A DNA stretch of 64,000 nucleotides from Candidatus Altimarinota bacterium (GTDB taxonomy: Bacteria; Patescibacteriota; Gracilibacteria; 1-14-2-50-48-13), in NCBI GenBank assembly GCA_046314355.1, contig JBKBWQ010000001.1, positions 480,001 to 544,000 of the forward strand. The letters run 5' to 3'. The notes under the pieces are model-generated. The model did not search any database. It saw only the letters and a list, made by a program, of their open reading frames with translations, and had not been told where the DNA came from. This document shows, piece by piece, positions 1-52,866 of this stretch (positions are counted from its first letter, which is position 1; every line of letters begins with the position of its first letter). Position numbers and translations under genes: made by a program.

Positions 1-1407
1 AGATTTTGCACCGGATAATTCCACAGTCAATGGTGATGTACCTGCGATAGGGTCGGCCTCTATAAACGCCTTCGGAAGCTGCGTGTCGGTCGCATCTACT
101 TGGAAAATTTTAGTAGAAGTGGCGCCTTCTCCATTGATAGCCCGGACGGCAACCTTATATTTGCCGATTTGTTCAAAAGTACGGCTTTGTTTTGCTCCAG
201 CAGCTTCAAAAGTGCCGTCATTATCCATATCCCATTCTAAGGAACGAATATCAACTCCATTGAGTGTATTCGATGCATCAAAGTCCACTTTAAATGGTAC
301 TGGACCAGAGAGAATATCTGGAGTAGTTACGATCTTTAAGGTTGGTCTTATTTTTGTAAAAGTTAATGAGACTCCTCCATTTTCAGAACCTGGGCCATAG
401 GTTTCTTCAAGAATTTCTCCTGCTTTTCTACCTTGGTACGGCTGCATGAATTCAATAGTTGCCTGCATTTTTACATTATATAAACCTCCATTAAATCCTT
501 TATTGGTATAAGTATAATTTACTGTACGGCCAGTTCCTTCTGCTCCAGTATATTTACCATCCCCATCGAGATCCCATTGATATTTTTTTATACGGAAAAA
601 ATCAGTCTCTGATGGGAGTACCTGATCTGACACAGTAAACTGTACTTCCATTGGTGCTTCTAGATCTATAGTAGAGAGTAATGGTTCAAACTCTCCCGTC
701 GCTTCATTCTTATATGCTAGAATAATAGGAGTATTCTCTGCCTGTGTGATTGCTCTAGGAGCACGTATTGTTGAAAGAATAGCAACCCATGCAATGATAG
801 AAAATATGACTACTACAAAGGATATGATCATTGCCCAGAAAGCGGTACGCTTCGTATGTTTTTCATCCTTCTTTGCTAAAAGCAGTCGAAATAGACTTAT
901 AATAGCAATAATAAGGAAAATACCCGTAAAGAGCCCAAAGGATGTACTTACTAAAGTACTTAATATTCGAGGCATATCCTGCGTCGAAAGACCAAAACTG
1001 CTGAATATACTACTATTTGTGTTATACCCGAGAATCAATACTCCAACGAATAGGACAAAAAGAAAGGCAAAAAATCCAAAACATCCAGCAACTGCCCAAG
1101 GTCCACTGACCTTTCTTCCTTTGGCAACTGCAGTGTTTGCGATTTTTGTACCTGCAACTGGAGCAGCAGCAGGAGATGCAGCAGGAACAGTACCTGCTGC
1201 ATTAGTTTTTGGAACAACTCCGGGTGCGACAGGCGCAGGTTGCAGAAAAGAAGGAACATATACTGGCTGCTGCGGTTCTGGAATTGGAGCAGATACAGGA
1301 GCTTCAGCAGGCACCTCAGGATTTTGAGTAGGTGCTGCATCAGTATTTGGAACTGGATTTTCAGAAGGAAGAGTGTTTTTAGGCTGCTCTGGAATTTGAT
1401 CTGCCAT
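1..1407 (-). CDS. Membrane-anchored PKD-repeat protein (3' end runs off the window; absent from the ORF track)
   Basis: Manual translation from the ATG at 1407 is open to base 1. It reads MADQIPEQPKNTLPSENPVPN (Pro/Ala-rich), then three hydrophobic segments (WAVAGCFGFFAFLFVLFVGVLIL; FGLFTGIFLIIAIISLF; FWAMIISFVVVIFSIIAWVAIL), then PKD-like units (YQWDLDGDG, GPVPFKVDFDAS, LEWDMDNDGTFE, FEQIGKYKVAV, GTSPLTVELSG). It starts 15 nt after the stop of the 2865-aa gene. Confidence 0.85.
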   Translation of the reverse strand, partial: MADQIPEQPKNTLPSENPVPNTDAAPTQNPEVPAEAPVSAPIPEPQQPVYVPSFLQPAPVAPGVVPKTNAAGTVPAASPAAAPVAGTKIANTAVAKGRKVSGPWAVAGCFGFFAFLFVLFVGVLILGYNTNSSIFSSFGLSTQDMPRILSTLVSTSFGLFTGIFLIIAIISLFRLLLAKKDEKHTKRTAFWAMIISFVVVIFSIIAWVAILSTIRAPRAITQAENTPIILAYKNEATGEFEPLLSTIDLEAPMEVQFTVSDQVLPSETDFFRIKKYQWDLDGDGKYTGAEGTGRTVNYTYTNKGFNGGLYNVKMQATIEFMQPYQGRKAGEILEETYGPGSENGGVSLTFTKIRPTLKIVTTPDILSGPVPFKVDFDASNTLNGVDIRSLEWDMDNDGTFEAAGAKQSRTFEQIGKYKVAVRAINGEGATSTKIFQVDATDTQLPKAFIEADPIAGTSPLTVELSGAKS

Positions 1408-1422
1408 AATTAGGAAAAGATA

Positions 1423-4400
1423 TTAGGTGTTTCTAGGAGGTTCTGGTTTTCTAGGTGCAGGCGGCTGCTGCTGACCAGAAGGCGGTAGAGGTTTTTTAGG
1501 CATCCCTGTACCAGTATTTGGTCTTTGTCCACGAGATTGTACCTGTTGCTGAGCAGTCTGTAAATTGCGCGGTATGTAAGGGCGTTGTGCATTAGCTCTT
1601 TGTTGAGGTAATACTCCTGGCGCAGTCTTCTTTACAGGCGGTTCCTGAGTTACCTTCTCAGTATTTTCCGCTGGCGGTTTTGCTAGATCAGCACCCGGTT
1701 CAAATGGAAGTATATTTACTTCTGCAAATGGATCAAAAACAGGAGTTTCCTCTGCATTTTCTGCATCTACTTTTTTGTCCTGTTCATCCTGGAGAGCTTC
1801 CATACCCTCGTTAAAGGATTCCTCTGAATCATTATTATTTGTCGCAGGATGATCTGGACTCAATTCAGGTGCAAGCTCAGGACTTTGCGGAACAGTGAGT
1901 GGGGTAAGATCTGACGGTGATACAGCAAATGGATCAAATAATGGAGCGGTCTCAGAGGAAGGTTCAGCATCAGTAAAAGTCTGACTTGGCGCTTCTGTAG
2001 AGATAGCTGGCTCAACTGGAGCATCTTGGATCTGAGGTGTCATCTGCAGCCATGATGGTGCAGTACCATCAGCAGGAGGAATCACACCATCATCATGATG
2101 ACGATCCTCATTCTGCTCTACTACCGCAGGCTTTTCTTCAACTACTTCCGCCTCAACTGGAGCAGAGACTGGAGCCTCCTCATGAGCTTCTGCATTTTTT
2201 GGAAGTCTTGGGAGAGCTTCTTCCGCATTTTCATTAAATAACTGCTCTTCACCATCTTTTTTTCTAAATCGTGCAAAGAACTTCTTTACCGCTTCTCTAA
2301 TATTGAGAATATACTCCTCAAAGTCCACATGCTCATCAGGATGTCTACCTTTATATATAAGGAAAGAAACATAGAACCCAACTCCCAACAGTAAGATGAG
2401 AATAATGATACCCAGAAGGACTTTTCCAATAGTAAGTAATACAGAGACAAAGCCGGATGGTTCACCCGTAGCTGGAGCTGGCAATTCTTCAAGAGGTGCC
2501 TGATTTTGGTTTGCATTTGAATTTTCTGGATTTATCTTTGCTGCCACATACGTATAGAAATCTCTAGTAACACCAGTATCTAATATTATTGGTGTCTTCT
2601 CAGGCTCATTGAGTTCACTACTCTTCTGGATCATGTCCTGCAGTTTAGCAGATGCTCCTTGAGCAGCTAAGAAATCTTTTTCTGAAGACGCTTTCAGAAG
2701 AGTATCAAAGGAAGCCTTTGCCGGTTCATAAATCTTTCTACCCTGAAGAATATCGAGCTCACGAGAGAGTTTATCTAAAGTGATCTCAGGTTTCACCGAA
2801 CCATAATCAATAGAAACATCTGTACGTCCAAGACCAATAAGCATTTCCTGTACTTTCTTTTGAGGCTCTGCATCGAGCTTAGACTCTGTCACAAGACGGG
2901 ATGTGAAAGATACTGCAGCATCTACCCGGTCAGGTTTTTTGCCATAAAAGTTCTTTATTTGGAGAAGCATTTCACGGATAACACTTCGTTCTGTCGTAGC
3001 AAGTGGTCGTGTAGCAGCTAAGATATCTTTAAGGATCTGATCTAGTTCTCTTGGTGCTGCACCATGTGTATTCTGGATTGTCAGATCGTTTTCCTGAATA
3101 ATCTTTATCTCATCTCCAACGACTGGGATAGCATACAGTTTAGATAAAAGTGATGCTCTATTCTCTTGCGAAAGAGATGGATGCTCAAGCAGAGAAAGAA
3201 GAAGACGTATATTTTTCAGTCGTTTCTCCATACTAAGTGTCTTATCTGTAACTAGTCTTTCAAGCAGAATATTTAATGCTTTCTTAAGTTCAGGATCAGT
3301 TACAACTGTATCAATAGAAGCCATCAGTGCTTCCTTCGCCCGCTGCATCTCACTAAAGAGATCGTCAGATGCTACAGGCTTGAGATCAGGGTTATTCTTC
3401 AGCTCTTCCTGACACATTCTCTGAAGTACATTATTCTGTCCTCGTACGTAGACTGGAGTACATTCCCGAAGTGCTTTAAAGTAATCCTGGAATGTTGGGT
3501 CATTTTCTAATGCCGTGATCATTTCCAGTTTCACACTTACTGGAAGTTTTTCTGAAGCCAAAATAGTCTTTTTGAGATTATCTAGTTCATGCGCTGCTTC
3601 AGAGACAGTCATTTTACCATTTTTAATACGGTCTATTGTATCATTGATAATCTTTTTCTCCGCAGCATAAGATGCCGCATTAGAAGTCTTTGTTACGCGG
3701 TCGATATCACTATGAGTTGTACGTGAGAAAGCCTCCACATATCCTCCTAGCTTTGCTTTTAAGTTAGTATATCTCGCATCTTGTTTACTGATGACTGTAT
3801 AAAGCTCATTTAATGCTTTTAGTGAGTTACCGGCAGGATCAGAACTCGTCGCAGCTTCTGATAAAGCTTTTTTATACTTATCAAGATATGGTTTAAATAT
3901 TGCGCCACCTTCAGCATCAAAGATAGCTTCAAGAGTTCCCACTGAGCCGTTAAGGGTAGAGACAATTTTTGCATCTACTTCCCGGGATTTATCCGCAAGT
4001 TCAGGAATAGTCGAAAGCCCCTTTCTCGCATCAGATACTTGAGAAAGCATAGTGATACTAGGAAATACCTGCTGTCTTTTCTGATCAATTTCTGTGACTA
4101 ATGATGCTCTACGTGAGAGATCTTCTGCGGAAGTAATAGGAATCGCATTTACTATTCCACGGGCATTTTTCAGTGCTGTATCTGCTTGTATGCTTAGGCT
4201 TGCAATCAGCTTCTCATAAAGTACAGGATCATTCGTAAGTCTCTTATCGTTGATCCATACTGAAAGCTGTTTCTCAAGCTGTGGAAGAAGTACGCTACTG
4301 TCTTTTGCAGCAAGAAGAGCATCGATTTCCTTATAATACGTATCCTTCTCAGAGGAACTAAGGGTGGTACTAGATTCTATACTTCTCTTCATTTCCTGCA

Positions 4401-7400
4401 GCCATCCGTTTAGTCCGGAGACGATAGTAGTATCCACTTTTGTTTTTTCAGCAGGAGGTATCCATGAAGCATTTGTTATAGAGTTCTTTAGGTCTTTTAA
4501 TGCTTTAAGTGTATTAGTAAGACCAGAATTTGTATTCAGATCATTCTCAAGATTCTTTGCAATAAGACCTCCCTGCCCTGCAACTTGCTTGAAGGTAGTA
4601 GATATCCGCTCCGATGCCTTATCTGAAATCTGGCTAATACTATTATTCACTTCCTTTGTAATCAGAGTTTTGACATCTGTCCCAATATTCTGCTGATTCA
4701 TGAGGCTCAATATAGCATCTTGGATCTTCTTTGCACGGGTTACAGGATCATCATTCTGATAACTTGACTGAAGTATATTTATTCGATCAAGAAGATCCTT
4801 TCTCTCAGCTTCAGAGAGAGTAGTAGTATTTCTAATGATTTCACTCACCTTTGTAACGAGAGTTTTCGTACTTGAATCAACATCGCTCTTTATCTGCTGC
4901 TTTGTAGAGTCAGGTATAAGTGTAGAGTTCATGATATCTTTGAGGATCTGCTCCATTTTAGTACTCTTCACATCCACACTTACAGTACTATTTTTTAGAC
5001 CCGCAAGTTCATTGAAGTATTTTGAGAGCAAAGTATTTCCAGTCTTTTCCGCATCTGTAAGAGCATTTACAAGACCAGCCTTGAGATTATCTACAGCATC
5101 TACTACCATTTTATTTTCAAGAGTTCTATCCACAGGAGCTACAGCCACAAAAGAGGCAATTTTGAGTAGCTGTGCCTTGTCTTCAGCACTTAATCCAGAG
5201 GTATTTATTTTTTTAAGAATTTGCTCAAAGGTATCAAGCCGTGCATCCGGACTTGTTTGAGAGTTTAGTGCTTCAAAAAGAGCCTTGAACTGATCATTAT
5301 AAAGGTTTTCATCTTTTCGTTTAAGATACTCTGCAATCACAGATGCATCACTTGAGTAAAGATTATAATCGTTACATGCAAGACGTGCCTCTCCATTCGC
5401 ATTCAGAACGAGTACAGTATTTGTACAACCTACAAGAGACGTTGGACCAACAATCTTATACCCAGAAACGTTCGCAGGTACTACTGGTGCACTTGGATTT
5501 GTAGCACTTGATGTCGTAATGTTCTGAATAAGTTTCTTGATCTCTTCGATATCTTTTGCTGTAGGAGCAGCAGGTTTGACAGAACCATCCTGATTTGAGT
5601 ATGCAGGCTGTGAGGTATTGATATTAGGATTTGTGGTTGGCACAGTGGTACCGCCAGGCAAGGTATGCACTGGAGGAACATCAGGAAGATCATCATCGTC
5701 AGTGGTAGTTCCATTCCCATTTGAGTTATTTATCTGAGCAACTATTGTATTCGTGTTTGGGTTAGCAGTAGTACCAGGAAGATATCCATTTGAAGGAGTT
5801 ACTACACCATTCTGATTTGTATTAAATGGTGTATACGGTAAAGCAGTATTCGTATTCCCGCCTCCTCCAACAATTGGAGTCGTCTGAGTATTTGAATTTC
5901 CATTACCAATAGTATTTGGATTAGTTCCATTATTGCTGTTCCCATTGCTAGTGTTCGGATTATTCGCAATCGTATTGGTATTACTATTCGTATAGTTATC
6001 TACCACCGCCTGCTCTGCTGGAGTAAGATCTGCAGGTACTTTTTTCACCTGGAATACGACATTATCCGTAGCGGTCTTTCCTTTATCATCGATACTTACT
6101 GACACTGCATATACACCGCATGTTGCAAAAGTATATGGTAAATTCAAGCCACTGTTCGTAATCGTTTTTGGAAGTTCACCTTGAGTATCAGAACATCCTC
6201 CAACCACAACTGAAGTTTTCTCAATCTTCCAAACATATTTTGCATCAGGTGATACAGGATCTCCTGTCATCAAAATAGCCTGAGCACTTAGATTTACGGG
6301 AGATGAGACAAGCCATGGGATAGTTTTTCCGCCATCTGGACCTCTAGGGCTAGATATTCTAATACTTGGCTCAGGTACCTGAGGAGTTTGGATAAAAAAA
6401 GCTTCAGAATAAAGAGTATATGACTTCTGGTTATCCGTAACAGCAGCATTTTCAAGATCTCCATCAAACACTTGGGCCCCTATCTGATACATAAATTTTG
6501 CTCCAGATGAACCATAAGGCATGATCGTAATATTTCTGCTTGCCACTTCCTGACTAATCTCACTCTGCATTTCCTTACCCTGTACTAGATAGAACCATCG
6601 GATTCTAGGTAAACCTGCCCGGTCAGGGTCTGCAAGATTTGTAAGTGTTGCTTTTACAGTTACAGGAGATGTAAGTGTTCCAAAGGGCTTTTCTACCATA
6701 AAAGAACTGTATGTAGGGAAAGTATTTTGTACTCTCACATACTTTGTAAGAGTGCTTGCTACGCCATTGTCTACTACTGTAAGTTTGATTTGCTGACATG
6801 ATTCTGCCAAAAGACTTAGGCTTTTAAATTGAATAACTTGTCTTTCCTGATTGCTGAAATTCGTATCTCCATCGATATTCCATGTAAAAGTATTATTACC
6901 ATCCACAGGCAGACCGTTATTTTTTACGGAATAGCTGCCGTCTAGTATATAATCCTGATTCTTTCTTACAAGATATCCCTCCATGTAGTCTCCTCCAACT
7001 TTACAAAGATTTGATATAGGTCTGAGAGAAATATTCCCAGAACTCTTTACTGCACTAATATCAAAGGCAGCAGCAGGATGTGAGTCATCTTTTATATATA
7101 CACTCTTACTTACTTTCGTCGGAATAGTTTTTCCTGTCTCATAGACAAAGAAATCTAGAATAAAATATCCTGACTGATTAAATTTAAATTCCTTTTGAAA
7201 TACCTGCAGACCTTCTGACATTGCAGGACCATCCATATTCGGGATTGACTGATTTACTCCACGAATAGAAATTCCTACTTTTTCCATAAATCTTCCTTTT
7301 ACCTGAGCGGTAAATATCTGACCTGCCTGGAAGATAATACCTGCATTGTCTGGGATCTGTTCCTTTTGTGCACCAAGGAAACTTACATCATATCCAAGCA

Positions 7401-10020
7401 GCGAATCGATACGAACCGACTTTGATGTACTTTCAATCTGTCCGAAATCATTTCGCCCACTCACAGTTACTTTATACGTTCCTGACTTTGTAAAAGTAAT
7501 AACTCCTCCTTCACTTCCCCGTTTCTCAATAATTACTGAGTTATCAAATGGACTCACAGTAATACCTACGGATTCAGGCACAACATATTTTGTACTAGTT
7601 TCAAGATCATAGACCGCAGGATTAGCAATTCTTGGTGTAACCGTAAAATCAATTACTGGAGAAAGTGGATAAACGAGTACTCTGTCTTCTATCACTGTTG
7701 CTTTTTCTACCCCCTGATAGAGCGCAGAGAGACGGACAGTATAGTATCCTGGCTTAAGGAAAGCATAATCAAGACTATCTCCGTCAGATGTAAGCAAATC
7801 CTTTGTGTACTCACTCTGGTTTTGCGTACCGTTCTGTCCAAGATAGATAAGGTCTATTGTCTTTTTCTGCAGGAGAGAATCTTGTGAAAAAAGCGGATAG
7901 GTATTTATTCTAAATGTTGAACCAAGCTTATTTACATGCGGACTCACATCTAATTGTGTTTTATCTCCAAATACCGTAATAGAAGTAGAAAATGAGCTAA
8001 TGGAATTATTTGTTGCCTCATCAAGCCAGTCTATTCTCAATGAATATTTTCCTGGAGAAGGAAATGAGAATACTGGTTTCTCAGTTATCACCTGAGGTTT
8101 TTGACCATTAATACTTTCTTCCGTGTCTCCTGCAGACATAGCATCTTTACGTATCTCCTTCACTTCTATCTGTTTTTGTGAACTATCCTTTGTCTCGATA
8201 CGTAGGAATGAAGGCTTAACAGTTCCGTAGAGTTTTGGATCTATTGTAAGTTTAGTAGCACTCGCAGTATCCAGCATTGGTATATAGAGAGATTTATTTG
8301 CAAGAAGTCGAAGTGTCAGAGGCTTCTGCTCGTTATCGGGTGTGAAGCTAGTATATGTACCATCCACAAGAAGACGTTGTACAGAATCTACACTAGTAGA
8401 AGTATCCCCTACTCTCGGCAGCATACTATTTGAAAAGAAGAGTCTGTTTGTTGAGATAATACGTGCATTTCCATTTTCTCCTATAGCACTGATCTGATCC
8501 ACAAGAGTAAGCGTATCCCCTCTTGTAACAGTAAATCTGAGTGCAATATCTTTTTCATTGGCAACACTGCTTGTAGTACCGACGACTTCTCCTGTTGCTT
8601 TTAGTACTTTATGTTCGATTTTCTTAGTATCTACAAAAGTACGCATGTAATTCTTTTCATCATTGATAGTCATGATGACATTTATATCATTCTCCCCGTC
8701 CGTAACAGGTATGATAGATTCTGCGACAAAGTTACCGATATTTCTTTGAGGCGTTTCATCTGCCTTCACGTTATATTCCACATCCTTGACTGTATAATAA
8801 GAAAGCGCAAGAGGTCCAGATGGATTATTAGTACCGCTGCTGTTGGTTCCATTTGTACCATTGGTTCCGTTAGTTCCGTTTGTGCCAGTTCCGTTTGTGC
8901 CGTCAGTCCCTGTGCCATCAGTTCCATTGGTTCCTGTGCCATTTGTACCATCTGTACCTGATCCGTTAGTTCCATTCGTCCCCGTACCATTTGTACCGTC
9001 TGTACTTGATCCATTAGTTCCACTTGTACCATTAGTTCCGTTCGTACCATTGGTACCATTTGTGCCATTTGTTCCTGAAGTATTTGTTCCAGTTCCTCCA
9101 TCACCAGGATTTTTTACTCCATTGACTGTGTTATATACCGTGATACGCCCTGTCGTAGTGGCGACATTTCCATTAGGCATCTTTATAGATACAGTATCAA
9201 ACAATATCTCAGAGGCACCATATGCAAGATCAAACGTGACCTTCCCGCTCTGCCTAGATGCATTATAGGTTGTAAGTACCGCACCGTTTGAACCCTTCTT
9301 AATGGTGTGAGTGATATCAGTAAACTTTGTTGTAAGATACTGATAATTAGGATCTTTCATATCAAGTTCTACTGTAACTTTCGGCTGCTGATTGAGCGTA
9401 GCGCTGCCGTTATATTTTATAGCACTCTGACCATTGATAAAGTAATTTACATCCCGTGCATTGTAGGTTGAAGACGCATAGAGGTTATCTACACCAGCAT
9501 TTGTAGTAGAGGTAAGTGCGCTCCGTTCTCCATCAGTGGAAGCAAATAAGAATCCTAAGATGAAACTCACTATTGCATAGGAAAGCAAAATCGTACCAAA
9601 ACCGATAGTGATATTAATAATCGTTGAGAGAATCTTCTTTCTTCTGTCTTCCTTATTTTCCACAATAAGAAGAATACCTTCAAATATGATAAGTACTACC
9701 GCTACAAATCCTAATATAAAGAATACTGTATTGAGGACATTTGTAATCAGTGTAAACAGGTTTCTTCTTGGATTTTCATTACTATCTTCACAGTTTTGAT
9801 CCAGCTTAATATCACAAGGATTTAAGGAATTTGTATTAAGACCTTTATTACATTGAGAATTAAGCTTGTTTTCAGCCTTCGAACAAAAATCTACATCAGC
9901 TGCATAAACATTATTTACGTGAAGTACTGTCGTACTTAACCCTATTATCAATAAAAGCATCAGCATAAGCTGTTTCCATATATTCATCTTATTTTTTTGT
10001 CGTGATGATAAAAGGTTCAT
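1423..10020 (-). CDS. 2865-aa surface protein: signal peptide, VirB2/TrbC-like pilin hairpin, Ig/PKD repeats, GTN repeat, long helical region, C-terminal TM and acidic Pro-rich tail
   Basis: Uninterrupted ORF with a hydrophobic N-terminus ending VYA-AD. It has a two-helix hairpin (LFTLITNVLNTVFFILGFVAVVLIIFEG...RRKKILSTIINITIGFGTILLSYAIVSFI), PKD-type strands (FPSPGKYSLRI, FLKPGYYTVRL, FTKSGTYKVTV, FATCGVYAVSV) and a TM segment VLLGIIILILLLGVGFYVSFLIY. The true start may be the second Met (MNIWKQ). Confidence 0.85.
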   Translation of the reverse strand: MNLLSSRQKNKMNIWKQLMLMLLLIIGLSTTVLHVNNVYAADVDFCSKAENKLNSQCNKGLNTNSLNPCDIKLDQNCEDSNENPRRNLFTLITNVLNTVFFILGFVAVVLIIFEGILLIVENKEDRRKKILSTIINITIGFGTILLSYAIVSFILGFLFASTDGERSALTSTTNAGVDNLYASSTYNARDVNYFINGQSAIKYNGSATLNQQPKVTVELDMKDPNYQYLTTKFTDITHTIKKGSNGAVLTTYNASRQSGKVTFDLAYGASEILFDTVSIKMPNGNVATTTGRITVYNTVNGVKNPGDGGTGTNTSGTNGTNGTNGTNGTNGTSGTNGSSTDGTNGTGTNGTNGSGTDGTNGTGTNGTDGTGTDGTNGTGTNGTNGTNGTNGTNSSGTNNPSGPLALSYYTVKDVEYNVKADETPQRNIGNFVAESIIPVTDGENDINVIMTINDEKNYMRTFVDTKKIEHKVLKATGEVVGTTSSVANEKDIALRFTVTRGDTLTLVDQISAIGENGNARIISTNRLFFSNSMLPRVGDTSTSVDSVQRLLVDGTYTSFTPDNEQKPLTLRLLANKSLYIPMLDTASATKLTIDPKLYGTVKPSFLRIETKDSSQKQIEVKEIRKDAMSAGDTEESINGQKPQVITEKPVFSFPSPGKYSLRIDWLDEATNNSISSFSTSITVFGDKTQLDVSPHVNKLGSTFRINTYPLFSQDSLLQKKTIDLIYLGQNGTQNQSEYTKDLLTSDGDSLDYAFLKPGYYTVRLSALYQGVEKATVIEDRVLVYPLSPVIDFTVTPRIANPAVYDLETSTKYVVPESVGITVSPFDNSVIIEKRGSEGGVITFTKSGTYKVTVSGRNDFGQIESTSKSVRIDSLLGYDVSFLGAQKEQIPDNAGIIFQAGQIFTAQVKGRFMEKVGISIRGVNQSIPNMDGPAMSEGLQVFQKEFKFNQSGYFILDFFVYETGKTIPTKVSKSVYIKDDSHPAAAFDISAVKSSGNISLRPISNLCKVGGDYMEGYLVRKNQDYILDGSYSVKNNGLPVDGNNTFTWNIDGDTNFSNQERQVIQFKSLSLLAESCQQIKLTVVDNGVASTLTKYVRVQNTFPTYSSFMVEKPFGTLTSPVTVKATLTNLADPDRAGLPRIRWFYLVQGKEMQSEISQEVASRNITIMPYGSSGAKFMYQIGAQVFDGDLENAAVTDNQKSYTLYSEAFFIQTPQVPEPSIRISSPRGPDGGKTIPWLVSSPVNLSAQAILMTGDPVSPDAKYVWKIEKTSVVVGGCSDTQGELPKTITNSGLNLPYTFATCGVYAVSVSIDDKGKTATDNVVFQVKKVPADLTPAEQAVVDNYTNSNTNTIANNPNTSNGNSNNGTNPNTIGNGNSNTQTTPIVGGGGNTNTALPYTPFNTNQNGVVTPSNGYLPGTTANPNTNTIVAQINNSNGNGTTTDDDDLPDVPPVHTLPGGTTVPTTNPNINTSQPAYSNQDGSVKPAAPTAKDIEEIKKLIQNITTSSATNPSAPVVPANVSGYKIVGPTSLVGCTNTVLVLNANGEARLACNDYNLYSSDASVIAEYLKRKDENLYNDQFKALFEALNSQTSPDARLDTFEQILKKINTSGLSAEDKAQLLKIASFVAVAPVDRTLENKMVVDAVDNLKAGLVNALTDAEKTGNTLLSKYFNELAGLKNSTVSVDVKSTKMEQILKDIMNSTLIPDSTKQQIKSDVDSSTKTLVTKVSEIIRNTTTLSEAERKDLLDRINILQSSYQNDDPVTRAKKIQDAILSLMNQQNIGTDVKTLITKEVNNSISQISDKASERISTTFKQVAGQGGLIAKNLENDLNTNSGLTNTLKALKDLKNSITNASWIPPAEKTKVDTTIVSGLNGWLQEMKRSIESSTTLSSSEKDTYYKEIDALLAAKDSSVLLPQLEKQLSVWINDKRLTNDPVLYEKLIASLSIQADTALKNARGIVNAIPITSAEDLSRRASLVTEIDQKRQQVFPSITMLSQVSDARKGLSTIPELADKSREVDAKIVSTLNGSVGTLEAIFDAEGGAIFKPYLDKYKKALSEAATSSDPAGNSLKALNELYTVISKQDARYTNLKAKLGGYVEAFSRTTHSDIDRVTKTSNAASYAAEKKIINDTIDRIKNGKMTVSEAAHELDNLKKTILASEKLPVSVKLEMITALENDPTFQDYFKALRECTPVYVRGQNNVLQRMCQEELKNNPDLKPVASDDLFSEMQRAKEALMASIDTVVTDPELKKALNILLERLVTDKTLSMEKRLKNIRLLLSLLEHPSLSQENRASLLSKLYAIPVVGDEIKIIQENDLTIQNTHGAAPRELDQILKDILAATRPLATTERSVIREMLLQIKNFYGKKPDRVDAAVSFTSRLVTESKLDAEPQKKVQEMLIGLGRTDVSIDYGSVKPEITLDKLSRELDILQGRKIYEPAKASFDTLLKASSEKDFLAAQGASAKLQDMIQKSSELNEPEKTPIILDTGVTRDFYTYVAAKINPENSNANQNQAPLEELPAPATGEPSGFVSVLLTIGKVLLGIIILILLLGVGFYVSFLIYKGRHPDEHVDFEEYILNIREAVKKFFARFRKKDGEEQLFNENAEEALPRLPKNAEAHEEAPVSAPVEAEVVEEKPAVVEQNEDRHHDDGVIPPADGTAPSWLQMTPQIQDAPVEPAISTEAPSQTFTDAEPSSETAPLFDPFAVSPSDLTPLTVPQSPELAPELSPDHPATNNNDSEESFNEGMEALQDEQDKKVDAENAEETPVFDPFAEVNILPFEPGADLAKPPAENTEKVTQEPPVKKTAPGVLPQQRANAQRPYIPRNLQTAQQQVQSRGQRPNTGTGMPKKPLPPSGQQQPPAPRKPEPPRNT
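8830..9096 (-). repeat. Coding (Gly-Thr-Asn)n low-complexity repeat within the 2865-aa gene
   Basis: Translation GTNTSGTNGTNGTNGTNGTNGTSGTNGSSTDGTNGTG...GTNGTNGTNGTNGTNSSGTNN; 9-nt periodicity with varied synonymous codons. Confidence 0.95.
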
Positions 10021-11459: not shown

Positions 11460-14400
11460 CTACTTCCCTTTTACATCAAACATTTGATTATCCTGCCCAA
11501 GTGGAATAGATAAGAGACCTGCCTGGACTCCTTCTACGGTGATCAGTAACATACTTACATACATACCATTTTTTATAATAGTCTCTCCGCCAATCATATC
11601 TGCATCATATGCACTACCTTCATTCATAACAAGAGTGTCATTTTTCTTGGTGAATTCATAAAGGTTTTTCCATTCATTTTCCTGCAGTATCTGTACAGTC
11701 TGTACCTCCCCGTTTACCTGCAAGCGTACTTTGTTCTTATCATATACTTGCAAATGTACTTGATCAGTTGGTACATCTCCCTGCTTTGTTAAGAAGCTAG
11801 ATCCAAGAGATGCATCCGTACTCTTTACAGTGGTAGATGTTTTTAATGTAGTCGTAGAGAAAAGTTTTCTGACATAGGTACTTCCCTGTTTCACGAGTAC
11901 ATCAAGAGTCTTACCTTCATACGTATCATTTACCTGGATTTTTCCAGCCTTGGTTACTTCAGCAACCTGGACATTTGTACTTCCAAGTATACCTAAACTC
12001 TCCTTTGCAAGGATCCCTTCAATACGGAAAGTACCGTTCACTCCTGTTTTGATACTTTGCGGGAGCGGAAGCTCAGATATATTTTTTGTAGTACTGCCGG
12101 TCTCAGATTTCATACGCATTACCCGAAGTTCCAGCCCTTCACTAGGAGGATCTATGTGTCCTTCCACAATACCATTTTCACTATCATAGCTGTCGATGAC
12201 AATATTTGTTGTACGCGGCTCAATAGTGAGATCCTGTACAGCCATATTTCCGACCGTATCCACTGCATGAAGTCTCATATAAAATTTCTTTCCTACCTGA
12301 TCAGCAGCGAATGGAGAGATTTTAAAGACTGGAGCGTTTACTACGTAGGTATTATTTTTAGTCTTACTTACTTTACAAGAAGCGATAGCAGGATTCTTAG
12401 GATCAGAACACACAACATCCTTATCATTTGTAGCATCTCCATCCTTGTCGCTATCACTATCTGTATCCTTATCCCAATACATAGTTGCTATCTCAGAAGG
12501 ATCGGATGCATATGCCTTGATTTCCAAACCATCTTTAAGTTCCGTAGGTACAGTCATATATGCACCTTTTTCTAGAGTGATATTTGGAGAGACCGTATCC
12601 TGCTCTCTCTGTGGATGAAGAAGAATAGGAGTAGTAAAGGTACCATACGCCTTCGTTTCAGGATTATACGGTGCAATAGTAGTAGAATATGGGACTCCTG
12701 ATTTTTGGAATGAAAGTATCGCCTGCATCTGTGATGCTTTCTTTACTACTATTACTCTCTCTACCGGTGTACCTAGTTCCTCTGATTTTAACTGTTCTTT
12801 CTTTACTTGATCGGCAACCTTCAACTCTTCTGATAATGCAGGAACTCTTGACGCATCTAACGTATATGAGCTCTCTGGACTAGCATAGATATAGTACTCA
12901 ACATAATTATTCTGAACTGCATCCTTTGAGACAAGGCTATCAGTGAGCCATGCATCGGGAGTTCGATGGAATCTTATGGCATAGACAGACGGCTTAGCAA
13001 GGCTGCTGTCTCCTCTTGTCTGAGGCATCAGGGAAATAATTGCCTGTCTTGCATTTTGTCCTAGTACTCTAAAGTTCTGGACACGAGGTGTTGCTGGTAA
13101 AAGTGAATTTATAGTCTTTGTATAGATTCTCTTTGGTCCTGTATACATAGCCTTAGCTGATCCAAGATTACTTCCCTGCGCCTGAGAAAGCACATTATAT
13201 TTGATGGAAATATCACGTCCCTGGTAATAGACGATATCTCTTTGTCCGTCACCATTGAGATCCTCGGCACTATCAAGACCAGAATCCTCATCATTTCCTC
13301 CGCTGTAATTCATAATAGGCACAAAGCTTCCAGGCAGGTCAGTGAGCTGTACAAGAAGATTAGATGCAGTTTCAGAGGAAGATGGATCAGGAGGGGTATC
13401 TTCTTTAGCAGTACTTGCGGTAGTAGTTGTACTGCTGGATGTAGTAGTAGCTGCTGCAATCAAAGTCCCATCACTCGTTGAGGCTGTGATTGGAGTAATA
13501 TCAGATGTTCTCACGCCTGCCTCAGGGATATCATATGTATCTGATATAACCTTCTGAGATTCTTCGATTTCAGGTGCCATCATCTCTCTATAGTCTATTG
13601 GTACGATCGCAGCGGCATTCTGGAGTATCACCTCAAGATTTTTCTGCTGCTCATTATTTCTTTCCTCAGGAGTCTGGAGAGATAGGTCAGTGCTGGCAGT
13701 AATAGTATTAGCAAAAGAATCTGCAAGCATACCCGCATCGGCAAGTACACTTCTAAAGTCTTCCATTGTATTTACTGAACTCATATTATTAATACTATAC
13801 TGTGCCTGTTCAAGATCCTTATGGAGCGTCTCAAGATTATTTCTTGTTGCCTTCCAGTTTCTTATTCCCTGGAAAGAATCACTTGAGACTGGCTCATCTA
13901 CCTCCAAAGCTTTTCCTTCTTTCTCAGCAAGAGCTATGATATTTTCTATCTTTTCTATAGCAATATGTCTTGCTTCACCAAGAGTATCTCCAGATGTTTT
14001 CAGAAGCTCTATTTGTGCTTTCAGTGAAGGAATATAATTATCAAAGGAAATCCCATCAGCTGTGGAAACATTTTCCATCAGAGATTTAAGCGCATCCATC
14101 TGTACAAAAAGATTCTGTACATCCGGAGACTGCATAACAGCTGCTACTTGCATATTTTCTTTAAGCTGATCTTCATTCAGCGTCTCAGCAATAGCATCTC
14201 CTGTAGATCCAGTGTCTGAAATCTGAATAGAATTACTCATAGTATCTGCAAGGTCATCGCTTACCTGCTGTACGCTGTTTCGAGCACTACTGAGCGCGCC
14301 GTTTGTTGTCTCAACGGCACTATTGATTCCCTGAGAAAGACGGTCAAGCGCTGAGCGTCCATCTTCATCCTTAAATGAAGCAGCAGCATCGGATAATACT

Positions 14401-17400
14401 TTAGAGGTTGCTTCAGAGGCAGTAGTCACAATACCTGAGACAAAACTCTGTACATTTCCAGTCACCATCTTATTCCACTGTTCTGCAGTAGTTTTTACTA
14501 AATCAGTAAGAGCAGTATACGGCTTCTTATTTACCAGATTGATATACCCTGAAATCTTTATCTGATCAATTCCCGGAAGCACTATGTCAGAGGATTTATT
14601 TTCTTTTATCTTGAAAAGTGTCGTACCTCTTGTAAGTTTTTCGATCTGTGAAGCAAGCTGCCACTCAGGTATTGGTATAAGATTTTTACGCACAAGACAG
14701 ATATTCTGTAGGATCTTATCAAGAATCTGAATAGTTGTAGTAATAGTAGCATCAAGCTTTGGTATGATAGGAGGAGGCGGAAGGTCTGCAAGTTTTGGCA
14801 GATCAAGCTGAGGGAACTCAGGAAGATCCGGCAGATCAGGTAATGCAGGAAGTACAGGAAACCTTACATTAATACCATTCTTCATCATAAGGGAGAGATC
14901 CTGCTGAGAAATACTTGATTCCAAAGATATATTCGGGAATGTAATAGGCGAGAGTTTTGGAATCTGAAAGTCTACTGGGCGAAGTTTGATATCAGGAATG
15001 GTAATTCTCATCTGCGCACGCACATTTGAGAAGTCCACAACGATATCAGGCCATCTCGGGACACGTATCACTGGAATATCAGGGATAATATTTCCTAACG
15101 CATCAAGGGTACTTGCAAGAGCAGAGCCCTTATCGTTTACACAGTCAGCACAGGAGTTTCTATAGTTTTGGAAAACATCCACAACTATCTGGAAAGTTTT
15201 ACTGTAGTTTTTGATCTGATATATTGCTTTTTTCCAGTTATTTATGATCTTTTGCTGGCGGGTAATATATCCGGAAAGAAAATCAATCACACCAGTGGTA
15301 GTCTCCACAAGACGTCCAACTGTATATGATTTCCATTGAACATATTTTTTGAACTTCACCTGAATGTTTGCGTACTGATTCAGTCTCTCAAGGTTTTTTT
15401 GAAGCCCCTGAATATTCACCCAGGCATCAGATCCTACTCTTGCTACAGCAAGACATCTTATGCTGATATCTGCTCCTGTACTCACACTTCCATTTGTATC
15501 AATAGTAGGAACTCTCGGGGTACCGCTTGCCTGCATTCTTGGTATAATGCTGAAATTTGGCTCAGAGATCGTATTATATGCTTTAGGATCATCAAAGAAA
15601 CAATCTGCATTTGCCTTATAAAAATTCTGGAAATTCTCAATAGACTGATCCATGGCGTATTGGATGTTCTGCTTTATTTCAAAAAACTTTTCCGGAGCAA
15701 TCCACGGATATTCGAATACCACTTCCTCATGAGTAATATTCACAAGAGGAATTTTGCTTAAGAAATCAAGAGCGTCTCCTATGCCCTTCTGCTTCATAAG
15801 GAAAGAATTTACAAGACTAGGATCGGAAACTTGACCTGATAGCTCTGTATACCAGCTTGCATCTTGCAGTACATTCTGCATCTGCTGACCGATAAAATCT
15901 CCTTCACAATTGATATCTCCCTGCACATTATTAAGCGTAGTATTTACATAATCCTTTGCACTTGAGAGTCCTTCAGCAGTTTTTGAAATAAGATCATCGA
16001 TATTCTGCACCGTTTGGTTATTTGTATCTGTTCGAGTCTGAGCCTTTTGATCCATACGTGCCAGACAGCGTTCTCTCGTAGCTGCGATAGCCTGTTGTTC
16101 TTTAGCCGCAATCATGGAACGGATCTGATCATCAGTAGCACTAGAAGAAAGGAGAAGGAGCTCTTCCTTTGCTATCGTAAGGAGATTTGCACGGTTCTTG
16201 GCATTTATCTCTGTCTCGACCTCAATATAGGTCTTGTTTATCACTTGAGTTCTAAGAGCATCTTCCTTGAGGGTTGTAGATCCACTTATATTCAGTTCAG
16301 CAGCTCTTCTTCTTAGCGTTGCAAGATCCATGCTATTTACTTCCTGCAATGCATCCTTCTTTTCTTCATTAAGCACAAGAGTCTTCAATGCCCCATCAGG
16401 AACATTTTCATCTACAATACCAAGACTTTTTGCCTTGGATTCAAGAGTAGCTCTTGTATCATTTTTAGTTTTAGCTTCAAGGGCAGCTTTCTCAGCAGCA
16501 GTTGGGTCTGGTTTTAATGCATTCTCAGACATAGTAGCAGCACCTTTGATCACATTTCCGATCAGACTTCTTGGATCCGGAAGACGTATATAGATAGTAG
16601 GTATTTTCAAAAGCTTGAGGAGTTCTTCCATCTGTCTCTCCACCCAGTCCATCGGTATCTTTGGAAATCCTCCTGCATGTTTATTATAAGAAGTATTTGG
16701 TGCAGAACTATTCTTTGCAAGTGTTGCAAACTGCTCCATATAACTTGGAGTCAAAGCAGGATCATTAAATTCATAATGGTATGCTATAAACGCTCCATCT
16801 GGTTCAGCACCTGCCTCAGCGATTCCTCTTTTCTTTACTCGTGCAGCAGCATAGGCACCGCCTCCGATCATCTCAGTAGCTGCTGTAACCACTCCTGTCA
16901 AAGCACTTTCAAGACTTTGACATAACTTCACAAGATCAAATACATCTGGAAGAATAAATGGGTAACAATTTGCATTTGGAAGTGGAGTTACAACACCTAC
17001 AAGCGCAGAGGTATCTGCCATACCGAAATCAAATGGTCCTACACACACAGCCATCGCCATACGTGCTGAGAGTGTCACAGAGAAATAGACACGAATTTGA
17101 GACAGACTTTTACTATTAAAGTATGTCCCATCCGGAGGCCATACTGGCACTAGACCTGTAGGAGTTGGGAAAGCAAATACTGGAATATCCGGTCCTTCAA
17201 AGAGTTCTGATTTACCCGGCACGAGGAAGGCCTTATTTTTTGGGAATAGTCCGCATCCTCCAAAGTAGCAGTTATTTTCTGACAACCGTTTGTTCACTTG
17301 ATCCAGAGCGGTAGATGCTCCTTGAGCTAACTGAGATACCCCGCCTGTTACGGCACCAGCAATATCTATATCTCCAGCTTTGACTACAGCAGCATTTTTA

Positions 17401-51900: not shown

Positions 51901-52559
51901 CGGGAGGCAGCTCAAGCAGTGGAGGTACTTACATCCCTGCACCTGCAGCTATTGAGAATCCTTCTCAGAATATGACAAGCAAACCATCTGCACCTATCTT
52001 CACTGATATTGGTCAGCATTTCTCAAAGGATGCAGTTAATTACCTCTCAGCAAAAGGTATAATCAAAGGCCGTACATCTACACTCTTTGTACCAAACGGG
52101 CAGCTCAATAGATCTGAGGCTGCAGCTCTTATTGTAAGAGCATTAGAAAAAGAGGAAGAAAGTACAGAGTTTCTTAAAAGTTTTATAAATAAAAATCCTA
52201 GTTTTTCATACATACGGTTTATGGATGTACCTACTAACTCATGGTTTGCTCCTGCAGTAGGTTATCTGTCAGACATTGGCATTATTAAAGGCCGTTCTGC
52301 AACAGAGTATGCATCATCAGAGTCCATTACAAGAGCTGAGTTTATCAAACTTCTTCTCACCTTTGAAATACCTCTTCAAAGTGCAGAATTCGGCGACGCA
52401 CCTTTTACTGATATAAAGAGTACAGATTGGTATTTCTCATATATAAATGATGCTTATCGAAAAGGAGTTATAATGAAATCACAAACCTTCAGACCAAATG
52501 CACCAATTACTCGAGGAGAGGCGGCATCTGCTCTAGAAAGAGTATTAAAAAATATGTAG
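48960..52559 (+). CDS. S-layer homology (SLH) domain protein with CBM-like beta domains and a putative alpha/alpha-barrel domain
   Basis: N-terminal TM/signal; three C-terminal SLH repeats (FTDIGQHF...LNRSEAA; FMDVPTNSWF...ITRAEF; FTDIKSTDWY...FRPNAPITRGEAA); Asn/Thr/Ser-rich linker. Confidence 0.85.
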   Translation: MHIKKPFLLLIAAVIIAATVIISMFMSGALFQSSLLVDEPAPSIGTYEAFQRYNTTAYKDHWTETFSGAVIRSYSGATLKTLPMSELAWGYSLKLPGYMEMFKTYKNTAYLDQLIGVFEEFLQNENFNDKDNDGRRDWMTTLPDDYAYEKLSNNTFWDYDTPQNKTVLYDFEDTLKSAGQETVSMDYKSNAANKAVKVTKSTPKRIALTNIVPGAYHVISFIGKSNGKPDLEGFATVVSNPSKDGETFTKITSHWPPVRSPEWETRYIAFKAPGTTAEPIPLFLELSISEKGTEDAESYFDNIKVGSVANYPAALSQSDRAIPIFWEIFTGEGSTSSSVSVKRNYANTGAQNPLYGSGVILKNNGSGLVGLRQELMYYSPKKTYELAYLAQTSSADDIGVVRVKDATTNMILAESEFQNTIPDIKSEYDPKANIDGSCTGKFISYKNFKKMTMTMSEEDSHRIVVEIVNKDPSKSSTIGINCISMRQVAPYAEHAGQIMMPIAEFILEVKQNPSLSKYKDVAKKYEDIILKEILPTYEAHIRAIPGTDKLVEYYHSKDFQGVDYYADEVSTSHNKFMPMMRTFLTMSKVTGNVKYKDLAIGLSKTFKSVLKLKEKNTKEYYIWNLMDNIQPHDNHYSNVVEDFSHANLTLGGVFEMFEHGLVYTKKDMQRFINTFFEATYNPAITVPCVSGGKQLTKRAITHYVDGLAHNNNETPYDLSCSAPIWQWIRIAAYDVRMWDVFKGAYTKSTTAKDLQTLGYMAEWDNAKIRNNSFSYEDVYSDGASHWAQTGSGGTILRTTNAQEIVSLPAALMVSKNALNQNIGVTQTILATTPSQAQYHLYFHSKNTSGIKGRVTVTTQTGALLLEKEINTVTWTPQGYAIAVPSKATSLKVTFEIQSSLQEGTMLLDDIYLFPKEGPVAITYVPYVENSNQNISNTNTTPVVNVNSNTISVENANKNLNENTVVITNTNTSNQKVISGYTGGSSSSGGTYIPAPAAIENPSQNMTSKPSAPIFTDIGQHFSKDAVNYLSAKGIIKGRTSTLFVPNGQLNRSEAAALIVRALEKEEESTEFLKSFINKNPSFSYIRFMDVPTNSWFAPAVGYLSDIGIIKGRSATEYASSESITRAEFIKLLLTFEIPLQSAEFGDAPFTDIKSTDWYFSYINDAYRKGVIMKSQTFRPNAPITRGEAASALERVLKNM

Positions 52560-52699: not shown

Positions 52700-52866
52700 T
52701 TCTTTTTTCTACGAGTTTCGAATGATACAGCTACTCAGGATATTCATAATCTGAAGTGCGGAGCACTACGATATATGTGATTGCCAATAATTCAAATGAA
52801 GTAATTATTCACTTGCGAAATATTTCTGTTGGAGTACTTTTATTAGTTATAATTTTACTAGTGGAT

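Follow-up and report, generated by a model that had tools for sequence, protein, structure and literature searches.

A VirB2-like pilin hairpin at the N-terminus of a giant, doubly anchored protein of Candidatus Altimarinota

Introduction

VirB2-like pilins (PF18895) are described as widespread in Patescibacteria, where they occur in arrays and are essential in one cultured species, and the same accounts report that no PrgB-type adhesin was detected in a patescibacterial survey (PMC12102498, PMC10633639, PMC12857230). According to the survey figures, pilin genes lie near virB4 or in a type IV secretion system (T4SS) cluster in 1135 of 1948 assemblies, and T4SS genes are dispersed in the class to which the genome discussed here belongs (PMC12102498). 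Reviews still treat a pilus in these bacteria as a mere possibility and, as far as the cited one reports, no Patescibacterium has been seen to form a filament of PF18895 proteins (PMC12857230). Relatives within the phylum are described as living attached to hosts (PMC12102498, PMC8080830). Classical pilins are reported to be heavily processed and, after processing, to have two TM segments in the membrane with basic residues toward the lumen; their lipid-carrying hairpins are distributed between the membrane and the polymer (PMC6362355).

Here we describe P0001, a protein encoded in a 64,000-nt stretch (the window) of the small genome of an uncultured Candidatus Altimarinota bacterium. It represents a real and conserved modular version of the VirB2-like pilin that has, apparently, not been described before. 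Our judgement is evenly balanced on whether P0001 works as a modular pilin, that is, one in which a surface fibre of roughly 2360 residues has been grafted on the outward-facing C-terminal end of the hairpin. P0001 shares with the patescibacterial pilins, as these are described (PMC12102498, PMC10633639), the profile family and the order signal peptide, helix, basic loop, helix; both are found in paralogue-rich genomes and both coexist with a monoderm-type VirB4. By contrast, the described members are small, whereas P0001 adds a 2700-aa extension ending in a TM segment, and its locus lies outside any T4SS cluster.

Giant adhesins such as SiiE of Salmonella (2yn5), and the Ig domains of PrgB (8beg), build a long surface fibre from Ig-like domains in tandem, a design predicted for P0001 as well. 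Ebh of Staphylococcus, a giant repeat adhesin, has a C-terminal TM segment followed by a cytoplasmic tail. Unlike P0001, none of the three is known to begin with a pilin hairpin. Modular type IV pilins with grafted domains are represented by PilB and PilC of Streptococcus sanguinis, in which the grafted modules have hundreds, not thousands, of residues and none is known to carry a second membrane anchor. Additionally, VirB5 is described as a pilus-tip protein (PMC12857230). These proteins embody the same idea, an adhesive module borne by a pilin or tip subunit into a filament made mostly of plain major pilin, but the pilin fold of PilB and PilC (type IV pilus, not type IV secretion) is unrelated to the hairpin of P0001, and VirB5, unlike this hairpin, is not a VirB2 homologue.

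The giant protein and its N-terminal hairpin

The gene of P0001 (2865 aa) occupies positions 1423..10020 of the minus strand of the window (C1:481423-490020 in the genome), as indicated by the ORF call and by full-length orthologues. Residues 1-40 (9901..10020, minus strand) resemble a signal peptide, with a hydrophobic segment at 14-38 and a VYA end before AD, where cleavage presumably occurs. The short segment that follows (residues 41-86; 9763..9900, minus strand) is predicted to be extracellular from sequence and hydropathy and has low confidence in the AlphaFold2 model. The original prediction had noted a four-cysteine segment here, and Cys46, 57, 69 and 77 are indeed present in P0001; however, they are not conserved in orthologues, as there are four cysteines in P0005, two each in P0006 and P0007 and not a single one here in P0008 or P0016. 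In the hydropathy scan, the signal-peptide-like stretch is followed by TM segments at 88-124 and 133-162 and by a further one at 2521-2558.

The hairpin itself (residues 87-163; 9532..9762, minus strand), with the basic loop ENKEDRRKK between its two helices, was delimited using PF18895, NF045849, the model and conservation. It had been placed at 9544..9759, which corresponds to residues 88-159 of the minus-strand ORF 1423..10020, and its proposed VirB2-like nature is supported by PF18895 (T4SS_pilin), whose positions 4-71 of 71 align with residues 87-154. With a curated cut-off of 26.6 bits, this match reaches 30.4 bits with the N-terminal 200 aa, 30.7 with the N-terminal 300 aa and 31.9 in a six-frame search of the genome, whereas the entire 2865-aa protein scores 25.9 bits, 0.7 bits short of the cut-off. 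NF045849, the NCBIfam profile of the Mbov_0395 family of mycoplasma ICEs, aligns its positions 10-79 of 80 with residues 89-157 (31.1 bits, E 1.3e-7, below the cut-off of 40); both are monoderm systems, but the Mbov_0395 proteins have about 80 aa and reside on mobile elements. PF04956 (TrbC/VirB2; cut-off 27.9 bits) gave no match in P0001 in the Pfam profile scan.

The VirB2/TrbC/TraA proteins of the T-pilus and F-pilus (PF04956) likewise have a two-helix hairpin with a basic loop, held in the membrane after removal of the signal peptide, as they are described (PMC6362355). Nevertheless, P0001 differs from them in its monoderm host, in that any cyclisation, acetylation or pilus would be putative, and in having no match of significance, by sequence or by fold, to solved VirB2: searching PDB sequences with the pilin profile returned no significant match (VirB2 8cue at E 1.1), and Foldseek found 0 matches at E <= 0.001 for the hairpin model, a two-helix hairpin being too simple to score. 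This model (AlphaFold2, 50-row alignment) has two long helices, residues 84-120 and 124-163, with pLDDT above 90. Together with hydropathy, it gives the arrangement of PF18895 pilins, in which two TM helices joined by a short basic loop come after a signal peptide; however, those pilins have about 100-250 aa and end soon after helix 2, while P0001 continues for 2700 residues past it.

Additional evidence comes from P0002, the 199-aa free pilin encoded upstream. BLASTP of the first 200 residues of P0001 against it gave 28% identity over 149 aa, with E 4e-7 for that single comparison, and the strings quoted in the original prediction are present in both proteins. The alignment spans from the signal peptide to the end of helix 2, including the loop and flanks beyond the hydrophobic cores. 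The family-invariant Gly/Ala/Gly/Gly and YAIV positions are retained in P0001; none of 19 fused proteins has lost the three invariant glycines of the family or the basic loop, and 84-100% of them retain the N, A and YAIV positions. Moreover, the hairpin is the best-conserved part of the giant, with 42-61% identity among orthologues versus 17-34% elsewhere. On this evidence, it is constrained in the same way as free pilins.

We also considered that the hairpin might be just two TM helices lying together by chance, or that faulty assembly or a frameshift had fused a pilin gene with a giant gene, as the full-length PF18895 score lies under the cut-off and TM segments bias such matches. We rejected this scarcely credible explanation, since the fusion recurs in independent assemblies (five representative giants, 14 genomes of the class and other classes), PF18895 matches all 21 N-terminal pieces of large hairpin proteins and the P0001/P0002 alignment is not restricted to hydrophobic cores. 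Because all these pieces match PF18895, and 6 of the 21 also match PF04956 (E <= 0.001, best E 1.3e-9; 35.5 bits in one of them, L036), the hairpin of P0001 is a genuine VirB2-like PF18895 member and not the generic TM pair that had been formulated as the alternative.

Orthologues and other hairpin fusions

Among the 150 matches listed of 554, there are at least five giants of 2836-3680 aa that are homologous over their full length and share a TM pattern, and their common layout is signal peptide, hairpin, Ig-like and helical ectodomain, distal TM and conserved juxtamembrane motif. An additional giant of 3665 aa carries a precomputed PF18895 domain. Within the class, hairpin matches in frames of at least 700 aa were found in 16 of 41 genomes, and large proteins with the hairpin at the N-terminus occur in 14 same-class relatives. 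When full-length hairpin carriers were scanned, PF18895 was over its cut-off in 10 of 10. The fusion of hairpin and giant is, judging by these comparisons, ancient and maintained. Beyond the class, hairpins in the phylum carry PKD arrays, Ig-like (Big_5) domains, CARDB, SLT plus Amidase_2, or SLT plus a GDSL lipase, a recurring design by which pilin hairpins may bring adhesins and enzymes to the cell surface. In the genome studied here, there are 15 PF18895 matches in 12 proteins, and the other 11 proteins have 132-373 aa, with the hairpin C-terminal or in tandem.

Some of these observations would suit a simpler explanation, which we take seriously but consider the less probable one: the hairpin may have been recruited by fusion merely as a two-helix anchor, so that both ends of a fibre or fence sit in the membrane of the producing cell, without any dealings with pilins or the T4SS. 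P0001 has TM segments at both ends, in a topology that is self-consistent for a membrane loop; the hairpin is the sole anchor in 7 of the 14 class relatives; the SLT-amidase and SLT-lipase fusions could be exoenzymes tethered to the membrane; the loci have no linkage to virB4; and no pilus is known in the phylum, according to the review cited above (PMC12857230). Yet a plain anchor needs just hydrophobicity, while all 19 fused proteins keep family-specific Gly, Ala and YAIV residues and the basic loop, in what is, besides, the giant's most conserved part. A signal peptide and two extra TM segments would also be costly when the distal TM already anchors the protein.

Ectodomain

Residues 164-2520 (2461..9531, minus strand) form the predicted ectodomain, as judged from composition and a partial model. 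A G/T/N-rich linker (about 310-400) is followed by a beta-rich Ig-like region (about 440-1345), an N/T/P-rich linker (about 1350-1500) and a region, about 1500-2520, whose alpha-helical character is read from its sequence only. A model of residues 690-1000 (7021..7953), a 311-aa piece of the roughly 900 beta-rich residues, shows three Ig-like domains in a row (mean pLDDT 83.7), the tandem beta-sandwich arrangement of SiiE-like and BIg giant adhesins. Foldseek returned 155 PDB matches at E <= 0.001 for this piece, with SiiE (2yn5) at the top (E 9.8e-8) and SGBP-B, the S-layer protein SbsB and the PrgB Ig domains also among the first. The modelled ectodomain resembles adhesins; identity to the structural matches is 9-15%, a generic Ig-fold likeness.

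An architecture of pilin, PKD domains and TM segment had also been anticipated. Ig-like domains were modelled, and genuine PKD arrays stand behind a hairpin of the same kind in class relatives, but no PKD match was found in P0001 at E <= 1 with the Pfam profiles PF00801 and PF18911; its orthologue P0008 reaches 22.4 bits versus a cut-off of 23.5, and the nearest Atlas clusters of the ectodomain are PKD (score 0.90, a weak lead). The fold class predicted by the model is Ig-like, with PKD membership only putative.

Distal anchor and C-terminal tail

The second TM segment, expected about 2400 aa after the hairpin, was located by hydropathy at residues 2521-2558, and orthologues retain this double anchoring. 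This segment and the conserved juxtamembrane motif HPDEHVDFEEYIL, delimited by hydropathy and orthologue comparison (2281..2460, minus strand), have 33-52% identity among orthologues, and the motif occurs once in the whole genome. The remaining residues, 2581-2865 (1423..2280, minus strand), constitute an acidic, Pro-rich and poorly conserved tail, predicted from sequence and composition to be cytoplasmic; the last two full 150-aa blocks of P0001 have net charges of -19 and -10.

The doubly anchored form might be a transient intermediate if cleavage after the hairpin or before the distal TM freed the pilin, the fibre or both. Classical pilins are described as heavily processed (PMC6362355), low-complexity linkers lie after the hairpin region (about 310-400) and before the helical region, and in one relative (L026) the distal TM is four residues from the protein end, resembling a sorting signal. 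We consider this improbable, as no protease gene is present in the conserved three-gene module (see below), no cleavage motif was identified in P0001, and the conserved distal TM and juxtamembrane motif argue for a function in the mature protein.

Operon context

P0002 (10029..10628, minus strand) is a free single-hairpin pilin, as indicated by its ORF, its place in the hairpin tree and PF18895 and PF04956 scores of 21.7 and 20.1 bits, neither of which reaches its cut-off; a gap of 8 nt separates its stop from the ATG of P0001. A hairpin gene is found directly upstream of the giant in 13 of 14 complete loci, the 14th of which begins at a contig end, and P0002 groups in the tree with the 12 free pilins directly upstream of relatives' fused giants (13 in one group, support 92/87). 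Given this conserved pairing, the 8-nt gap in the window and the single tree group, the upstream free pilin is probably a dedicated partner of the giant, and the retention of a single-lineage pilin at this place is another argument against the hairpin being only an anchor. By contrast, the hairpins of P0001 orthologues cluster with small free pilins, and not with other fused hairpins or with the adjacent pilins; therefore, the pairing is not mirrored by close hairpin similarity.

Beginning 15 nt past the P0001 stop, a PKD membrane protein with three TMs is encoded at 1..1407 (minus strand; PKD_4, 48.6 bits); in full, it has 803 aa and extends beyond the window to G000:C1:478996. A homologue lies directly 3' of the fused giant in 9 of the 14 relatives' loci, with PKD_4 at 272 bits in one of them (L019). 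The free pilin, the giant and this protein form a three-gene operon, and the neighbours of the locus are envelope and housekeeping genes.

Possible mechanism and secretion machinery

If P0001 is a modular pilin, Sec would insert it in pilin topology, with the hairpin ends outside and the basic loop inside, and its fibre would consist of tandem Ig-like domains, a helical rod and the second anchor with its juxtamembrane motif, followed by a disordered cytoplasmic tail. The hairpin would associate with the free pilin of its operon, initially within the membrane pool and, should the VirB4-type machine of the genome extrude a filament, also there, as a sparse or terminal subunit. The adhesin-like fibre would thus be displayed on the surface, with its distal end still anchored in the cell membrane. 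Association of hairpin and pilin, any filament, its tethering and adhesion by P0001 are all putative.

Several observations weaken this proposal. With a distal TM and a 307-aa tail, P0001 cannot leave the membrane whole, and an appendage of 2700 aa would be sterically extreme for a pilus subunit. The hairpin module is not adjacent to virB4, no link to a solved VirB2 structure is significant, the whole-protein PF18895 score is just under the cut-off, orthologue hairpins group away from the adjacent pilins and, as far as the review goes, a PF18895 filament has not been observed in Patescibacteria (PMC12857230).

A broader idea, which we find rather doubtful, is that patescibacterial VirB2-like hairpins are a general module displaying adhesins and wall- or lipid-degrading enzymes on a type IV secretion filament, in which the giant's hairpin would sit at the tip or sparsely, with the fibre running back to the distal TM. 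If so, doubly anchored giants would be the extreme case, acting as tether, length ruler or force sensor between filament and cell, and the giant would supply the adhesin missing from surveys for the essential T4SS of these host-dependent bacteria. A link between two cells, with the hairpin end delivered into a host or prey membrane and the distal TM in the cell's own, seems very unlikely to us. It would fit, by inference only, with the membrane partitioning and lipid of pilin hairpins (PMC6362355), with the host-attached life described in the phylum (PMC12102498, PMC8080830) and with the fusions to wall- and lipid-degrading domains; however, the sequence gives no sign of hairpin export, and Sec insertion into the own membrane is the default for a protein with a signal peptide and TM segments.

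Regarding the machine that extrusion of a modular pilin would require, the genome encodes a VirB4-like ATPase (NF045971, 370 bits versus a cut-off of 325) at C1:1478930-1481056, about 990 kb from the P0001 locus; the gene of P0001 is neither close to virB4 nor part of a T4SS cluster. In each of five other genomes with fused hairpins, virB4 is on a different contig or about 170 kb off. A weak VirD4-like ATPase gene is also present, at C1:846348-848747.

Locus organization

On the minus strand, a 6545-aa ORF (window 31097..11460) is the first of a series that continues with the 199-aa ORF of the free pilin P0002 (10628..10029), the 2865-aa ORF of the giant protein P0001 (10020..1423) and the gene of P0004, a PKD-repeat membrane protein (1407..1, continuing past the window edge) that has a complete length of 803 aa and three TM segments. 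A histidine-phosphatase gene in the opposite orientation lies between the 6545-aa ORF and P0002. Since the stop of P0002 is 8 nt from the ATG of P0001 and, by coordinates, the stop of P0001 is 15 nt from the start of P0004, these three genes look like one operon. In a promoter and terminator scan 5′ of P0002, sites were no more frequent than in shuffles; no RNA sequencing runs are listed, and the sole listed run is of DNA and may be the source of this assembly.

The 6545-aa ORF has one N-terminal hydrophobic segment and no Pfam family above threshold (FG-GAP_3, at 25.2 bits, is below the cut-off), and it is outside the module conserved in relatives. Residues 140-211 of P0004, which span TM2, a basic loop and TM3, align weakly with the pilin profile (10.6 bits) and are missing the invariant glycines; the alignment is treated as probably compositional. 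If it were real, the operon would hold a third hairpin-plus-cargo protein.

The pilin hairpin of P0001

The original prediction placed a VirB2-like pilin hairpin, resembling that of the free pilin, at positions 9544..9759 of the window. This stretch encodes residues 88-159 of P0001, and the peptides that had been aligned between the two proteins are found in their sequences. The likeness was borne out by BLASTP, in which the first 200 residues of P0001 matched P0002 with 28% identity over 149 residues (E 4e-7), and by the pilin family PF18895 (T4SS_pilin), which matches residues 87-154 over profile positions 4-71 of 71. With a cut-off of 26.6 bits, the score is 30.4 bits for the first 200 residues, 30.7 for the first 300 and 31.9 in a six-frame search of the genome, and 25.9, just under the cut-off, for the whole protein. 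NCBIfam NF045849, a pilin-like conjugal transfer protein of mycoplasma ICEs, agrees in kind, matching residues 89-157 with an E of 1.3e-7, under its own cut-off. P0002 matches both PF18895 and PF04956 (TrbC/VirB2), each under the cut-off.

An AlphaFold2 model built on a 50-row alignment contains helices at residues 84-120 and 124-163 with pLDDT above 90, the flanks being uncertain. Foldseek of this hairpin against the PDB gave 38 matches up to E 10, of which none reached E <= 0.001; this says little, because a two-helix fold is too simple. Against PDB sequences, a small-pilin profile reached VirB2 structures without significance (8cue, E 1.1; 8exh, E 6.3), and a giant-family profile found nothing below E 0.07. 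All 19 fused proteins compared retain the three family-invariant glycines, and 84-100% retain the residues at the Asn, Ala and YAIV positions.

The first hairpin helix carries a glutamate (IxEG; Glu114 of P0001, window 9679..9681, minus strand) in all P0001 orthologues, whereas the family mostly has Ala, Gly or Ser at this position, before an invariant Gly. This acidic residue is buried within the membrane helix. The idea that the 4-Cys segment forms a conserved knob was rejected because the number of cysteines differs between orthologues.

Topology and ectodomain

Hydropathy indicates a signal-peptide-like segment at residues 14-38 of P0001, ending in VYA, TM helices at 88-124 and 133-162 linked by ENKEDRRKK, and, as had been claimed, one further distal TM, at 2521-2558 and followed by YKGRHPDEH. 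By the positive-inside rule, both ends of the hairpin are predicted to be outside, as are the 2360 residues that separate it from the last TM, and the loop and the final 307 residues are predicted to be inside; we infer that the signal peptide is cleaved. The hairpin would thereby sit in the membrane as classical pilins do, whose three TM segments are cut to two and whose loop is basic (PMC6362355).

Apart from the hairpin, Pfam found nothing above threshold in P0001. Residues 690-1000 were modelled as three tandem Ig-like domains (mean pLDDT 83.7, 8-row alignment), with 155 PDB matches at E <= 0.001. The leading ones are the giant adhesin SiiE, a glycan-binding surface protein, an S-layer protein and the Ig domains of PrgB, at identities of 9-15%, which amount to a generic Ig likeness. 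The Atlas places the cargo weakly near PKD clusters. Residues ~1500-2520 look helical from their sequence, and the tail is acidic and Pro-rich.

Conservation of the fusion

When the first 200 residues of P0001 were compared exhaustively with 1.84 billion representatives, 554 matches had E <= 0.001. The 150 that are listed include five giants of 2836-3680 aa, four of them the best matches, in which the hairpin lies close to the N-terminus; the others listed are small and contain between one and eight hairpins. Each giant can be aligned with P0001 from end to end, at 22-27% identity, and shares its four hydrophobic segments, and therefore an assembly or frameshift artefact is excluded. Identity is highest in the hairpin region (42-61%), followed by the last TM with its juxtamembrane motif HPDxHVDFEEYIL (33-52%), and is 17-34% in all other regions. 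No second occurrence of this motif was found in the genome. One additional giant, of 3665 aa and with a precomputed PF18895 domain, was recovered with residues 2131-2640 as the query. An earlier homologue search with residues 1-420 gave no matches, probably because a G/T/N-rich low-complexity stretch consumed the words.

The N-terminal 200 residues match 28 of the 41 genomes of the class, this one included (E <= 1e-5), and in 16 of them the match lies within an open frame of at least 700 aa. Fifteen of these places were examined, and 14 were left after removal of a fragment (L034). All 14 loci encode a protein of 722-3627 aa with a hairpin at about residues 50-300; a distal TM beyond the hairpin is present in seven of these proteins and absent in seven. 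A hairpin gene is found immediately 5′ in 13 of the 14 loci, the remaining one beginning at a contig end, and a P0004 homologue immediately 3′ in nine (for one locus, by Pfam). In the fragment, a 7.3-kb contig (G003:C159), the giant is split into overlapping plus-strand ORFs of 664 and 1811 aa (2..1996 and 1876..7310), which may reflect a frameshift or a sequencing error. Triple-hairpin genes are located just 5′ of the free-pilin/giant pair in five relatives' loci (L021, L022, L023, L025 and L026), and a lamin-tail-domain protein is encoded immediately 5′ of the pair in another (L019).

Hairpins, each represented by the final 85 residues of its profile envelope, were compared in a poorly resolved tree of 68 rows and 89 columns, leaving out multi-hairpin proteins, the giant of locus L020, L034 and own-genome proteins of at least 250 aa. 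Thirteen upstream free pilins, P0002 among them, form one group (support 92/87), which points to an orthologous lineage of the partner pilin that was inherited together with the giant. P0001 and five orthologues have hairpins that cluster in one clade (100/97), apart from the other fused hairpins and next to small free pilins, including the 142-aa pilin of this genome; from this sequence comparison, the giant's own hairpin may be of separate origin. One own-genome pilin is on a very long branch beside the orthologue P0006, a placement that is probably false.

Hairpin fusions across the phylum

Of 151 genomes sampled from the phylum (one of them, G183, unpublished), 148 have PF18895. Among the 150 matches listed (635 further ones are unlisted), eight are in frames of at least 600 aa, and seven of these places were examined. 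They hold six proteins of 606-3296 aa with an N-terminal hairpin. Three proteins of 800-971 aa have the reverse layout, with a large N-terminal ectodomain and a C-terminal hairpin (L038:442-3357, L039:554-3433 and L040:2719-5121). No distal TM was found in these nine proteins.

The N-terminal pieces of large N-terminal-hairpin proteins match PF18895 in 21 of 21 cases and TrbC/VirB2 in six of 21 (best E 1.3e-9), and the PF18895 cut-off is passed by all ten full-length fused proteins scanned. The cargo that follows the hairpin in these ten comprises PKD arrays (in six), Big_5, CARDB, SLT with a GDSL lipase, and SLT with Amidase_2. The latter two combinations are encoded at one locus of a genome of another class (G125): a 702-aa protein with a PF18895 hairpin followed by an SLT lytic transglycosylase and a GDSL lipase (L041:3922-6030, minus strand) and a 606-aa protein with the hairpin followed by SLT and Amidase_2 (L041:826-2646, minus strand). 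They are envelope-degrading enzymes on a pilin module, and possibly provide the VirB1 function that is seldom found in surveys.

Pilins, secretion machinery and proposed mechanism

Twelve proteins of the genome (1.69 Mb, 28 contigs, 98% complete) contain 15 PF18895 matches in total. Eleven of them have a C-terminal hairpin or tandem hairpins; P0001 is the only one in which a large extension follows. Two adjacent genes outside the window (G000:C1:838669-840697) code for tandem-hairpin proteins, one of 373 aa with three hairpins and one of 307 aa with at least two. A VirB4-like ATPase passes NCBIfam NF045971 (370 bits, cut-off 325) and was also found with PF12846 and PF19044, and there is a weak match to a VirD4-like ATPase; both genes are far from P0001. 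PF03135 (VirB4) gave no match in the genome, nor did PF04610 (TrbL/VirB6), so that VirB6 was not found with this query. PMC12102498 describes dispersed T4SS genes and no recognisable VirB6 in the class to which this genome belongs.

That the architecture exists and is conserved is firmly established. The safest reading is that P0001 is a modular VirB2-like pilin, in which a working pilin module carries a fibre as cargo on its outward-facing C-terminus. The hairpin would associate with the co-encoded free pilin in a membrane pool and, should the VirB4 machine extrude a filament, would stay paired with it in that filament, while the distal TM would hold the other end of the giant in the cell. 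The original prediction made the giant a minor pilin that tethers a filament to the cell. A complex model of three free-pilin hairpins and the giant's hairpin, run with alignments and without controls, gave no answer either way (score 0.00).

Three observations favour the modular pilin: the hairpin is conserved at pilin-specific positions, a dedicated pilin is encoded upstream, and the same module bears varied cargo. Against this reading, fused-hairpin loci are unlinked to virB4, here and in five of five other genomes checked, a pilus subunit would have to carry a very large steric load, the distal anchor retains the giant in the membrane, and the phylum has no known filament (PMC12857230). 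The chief alternative is that the hairpin does no more than anchor the protein; lesser ones are proteolytic release of the giant and delivery of the hairpin into the membrane of a host.

In this family, large extracellular cargo is attached directly to the pilin hairpin, ranging from Ig-like/PKD fibres of up to ~3600 residues to a lytic transglycosylase with an amidase or a lipase. VirB2-like pilins and pilin arrays in Patescibacteria (PMC12102498, PMC10633639, PMC12857230) and giant surface proteins in relatives (PMC8080830) have already been published. In the literature covered, we found no account of a VirB2/PF18895 hairpin fused to large extracellular domains or of doubly anchored giants; Table S3 of PMC12102498 may list long VirB2 hits. 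PMC12102498 also reports a survey of 3035 genomes with no PrgB-type adhesin, and VirB2-like pilin arrays and T4SS genes that are essential in the one species tested. The fusions supply specific candidates for the adhesins and envelope-breaching enzymes that have been missing, and they bear directly on the role of the essential T4SS and pilins in Patescibacteria. They also make the pilus question testable, as a tagged or antibody-detected giant would show the hairpin's destination. For annotation, length filters for “small pilins” conceal such fusions.

Elsewhere in the window, a 1199-aa protein with three C-terminal SLH domains is encoded at 48960..52559 (plus strand), and a 710-aa protein with lamin-tail and PKD domains at 53447..55579 (minus strand). 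A gene with a rifampin ADP-ribosyltransferase (Arr) domain (PF12120, 156.5 bits) is located at 52756..53295 (plus strand) in this small-genome bacterium.
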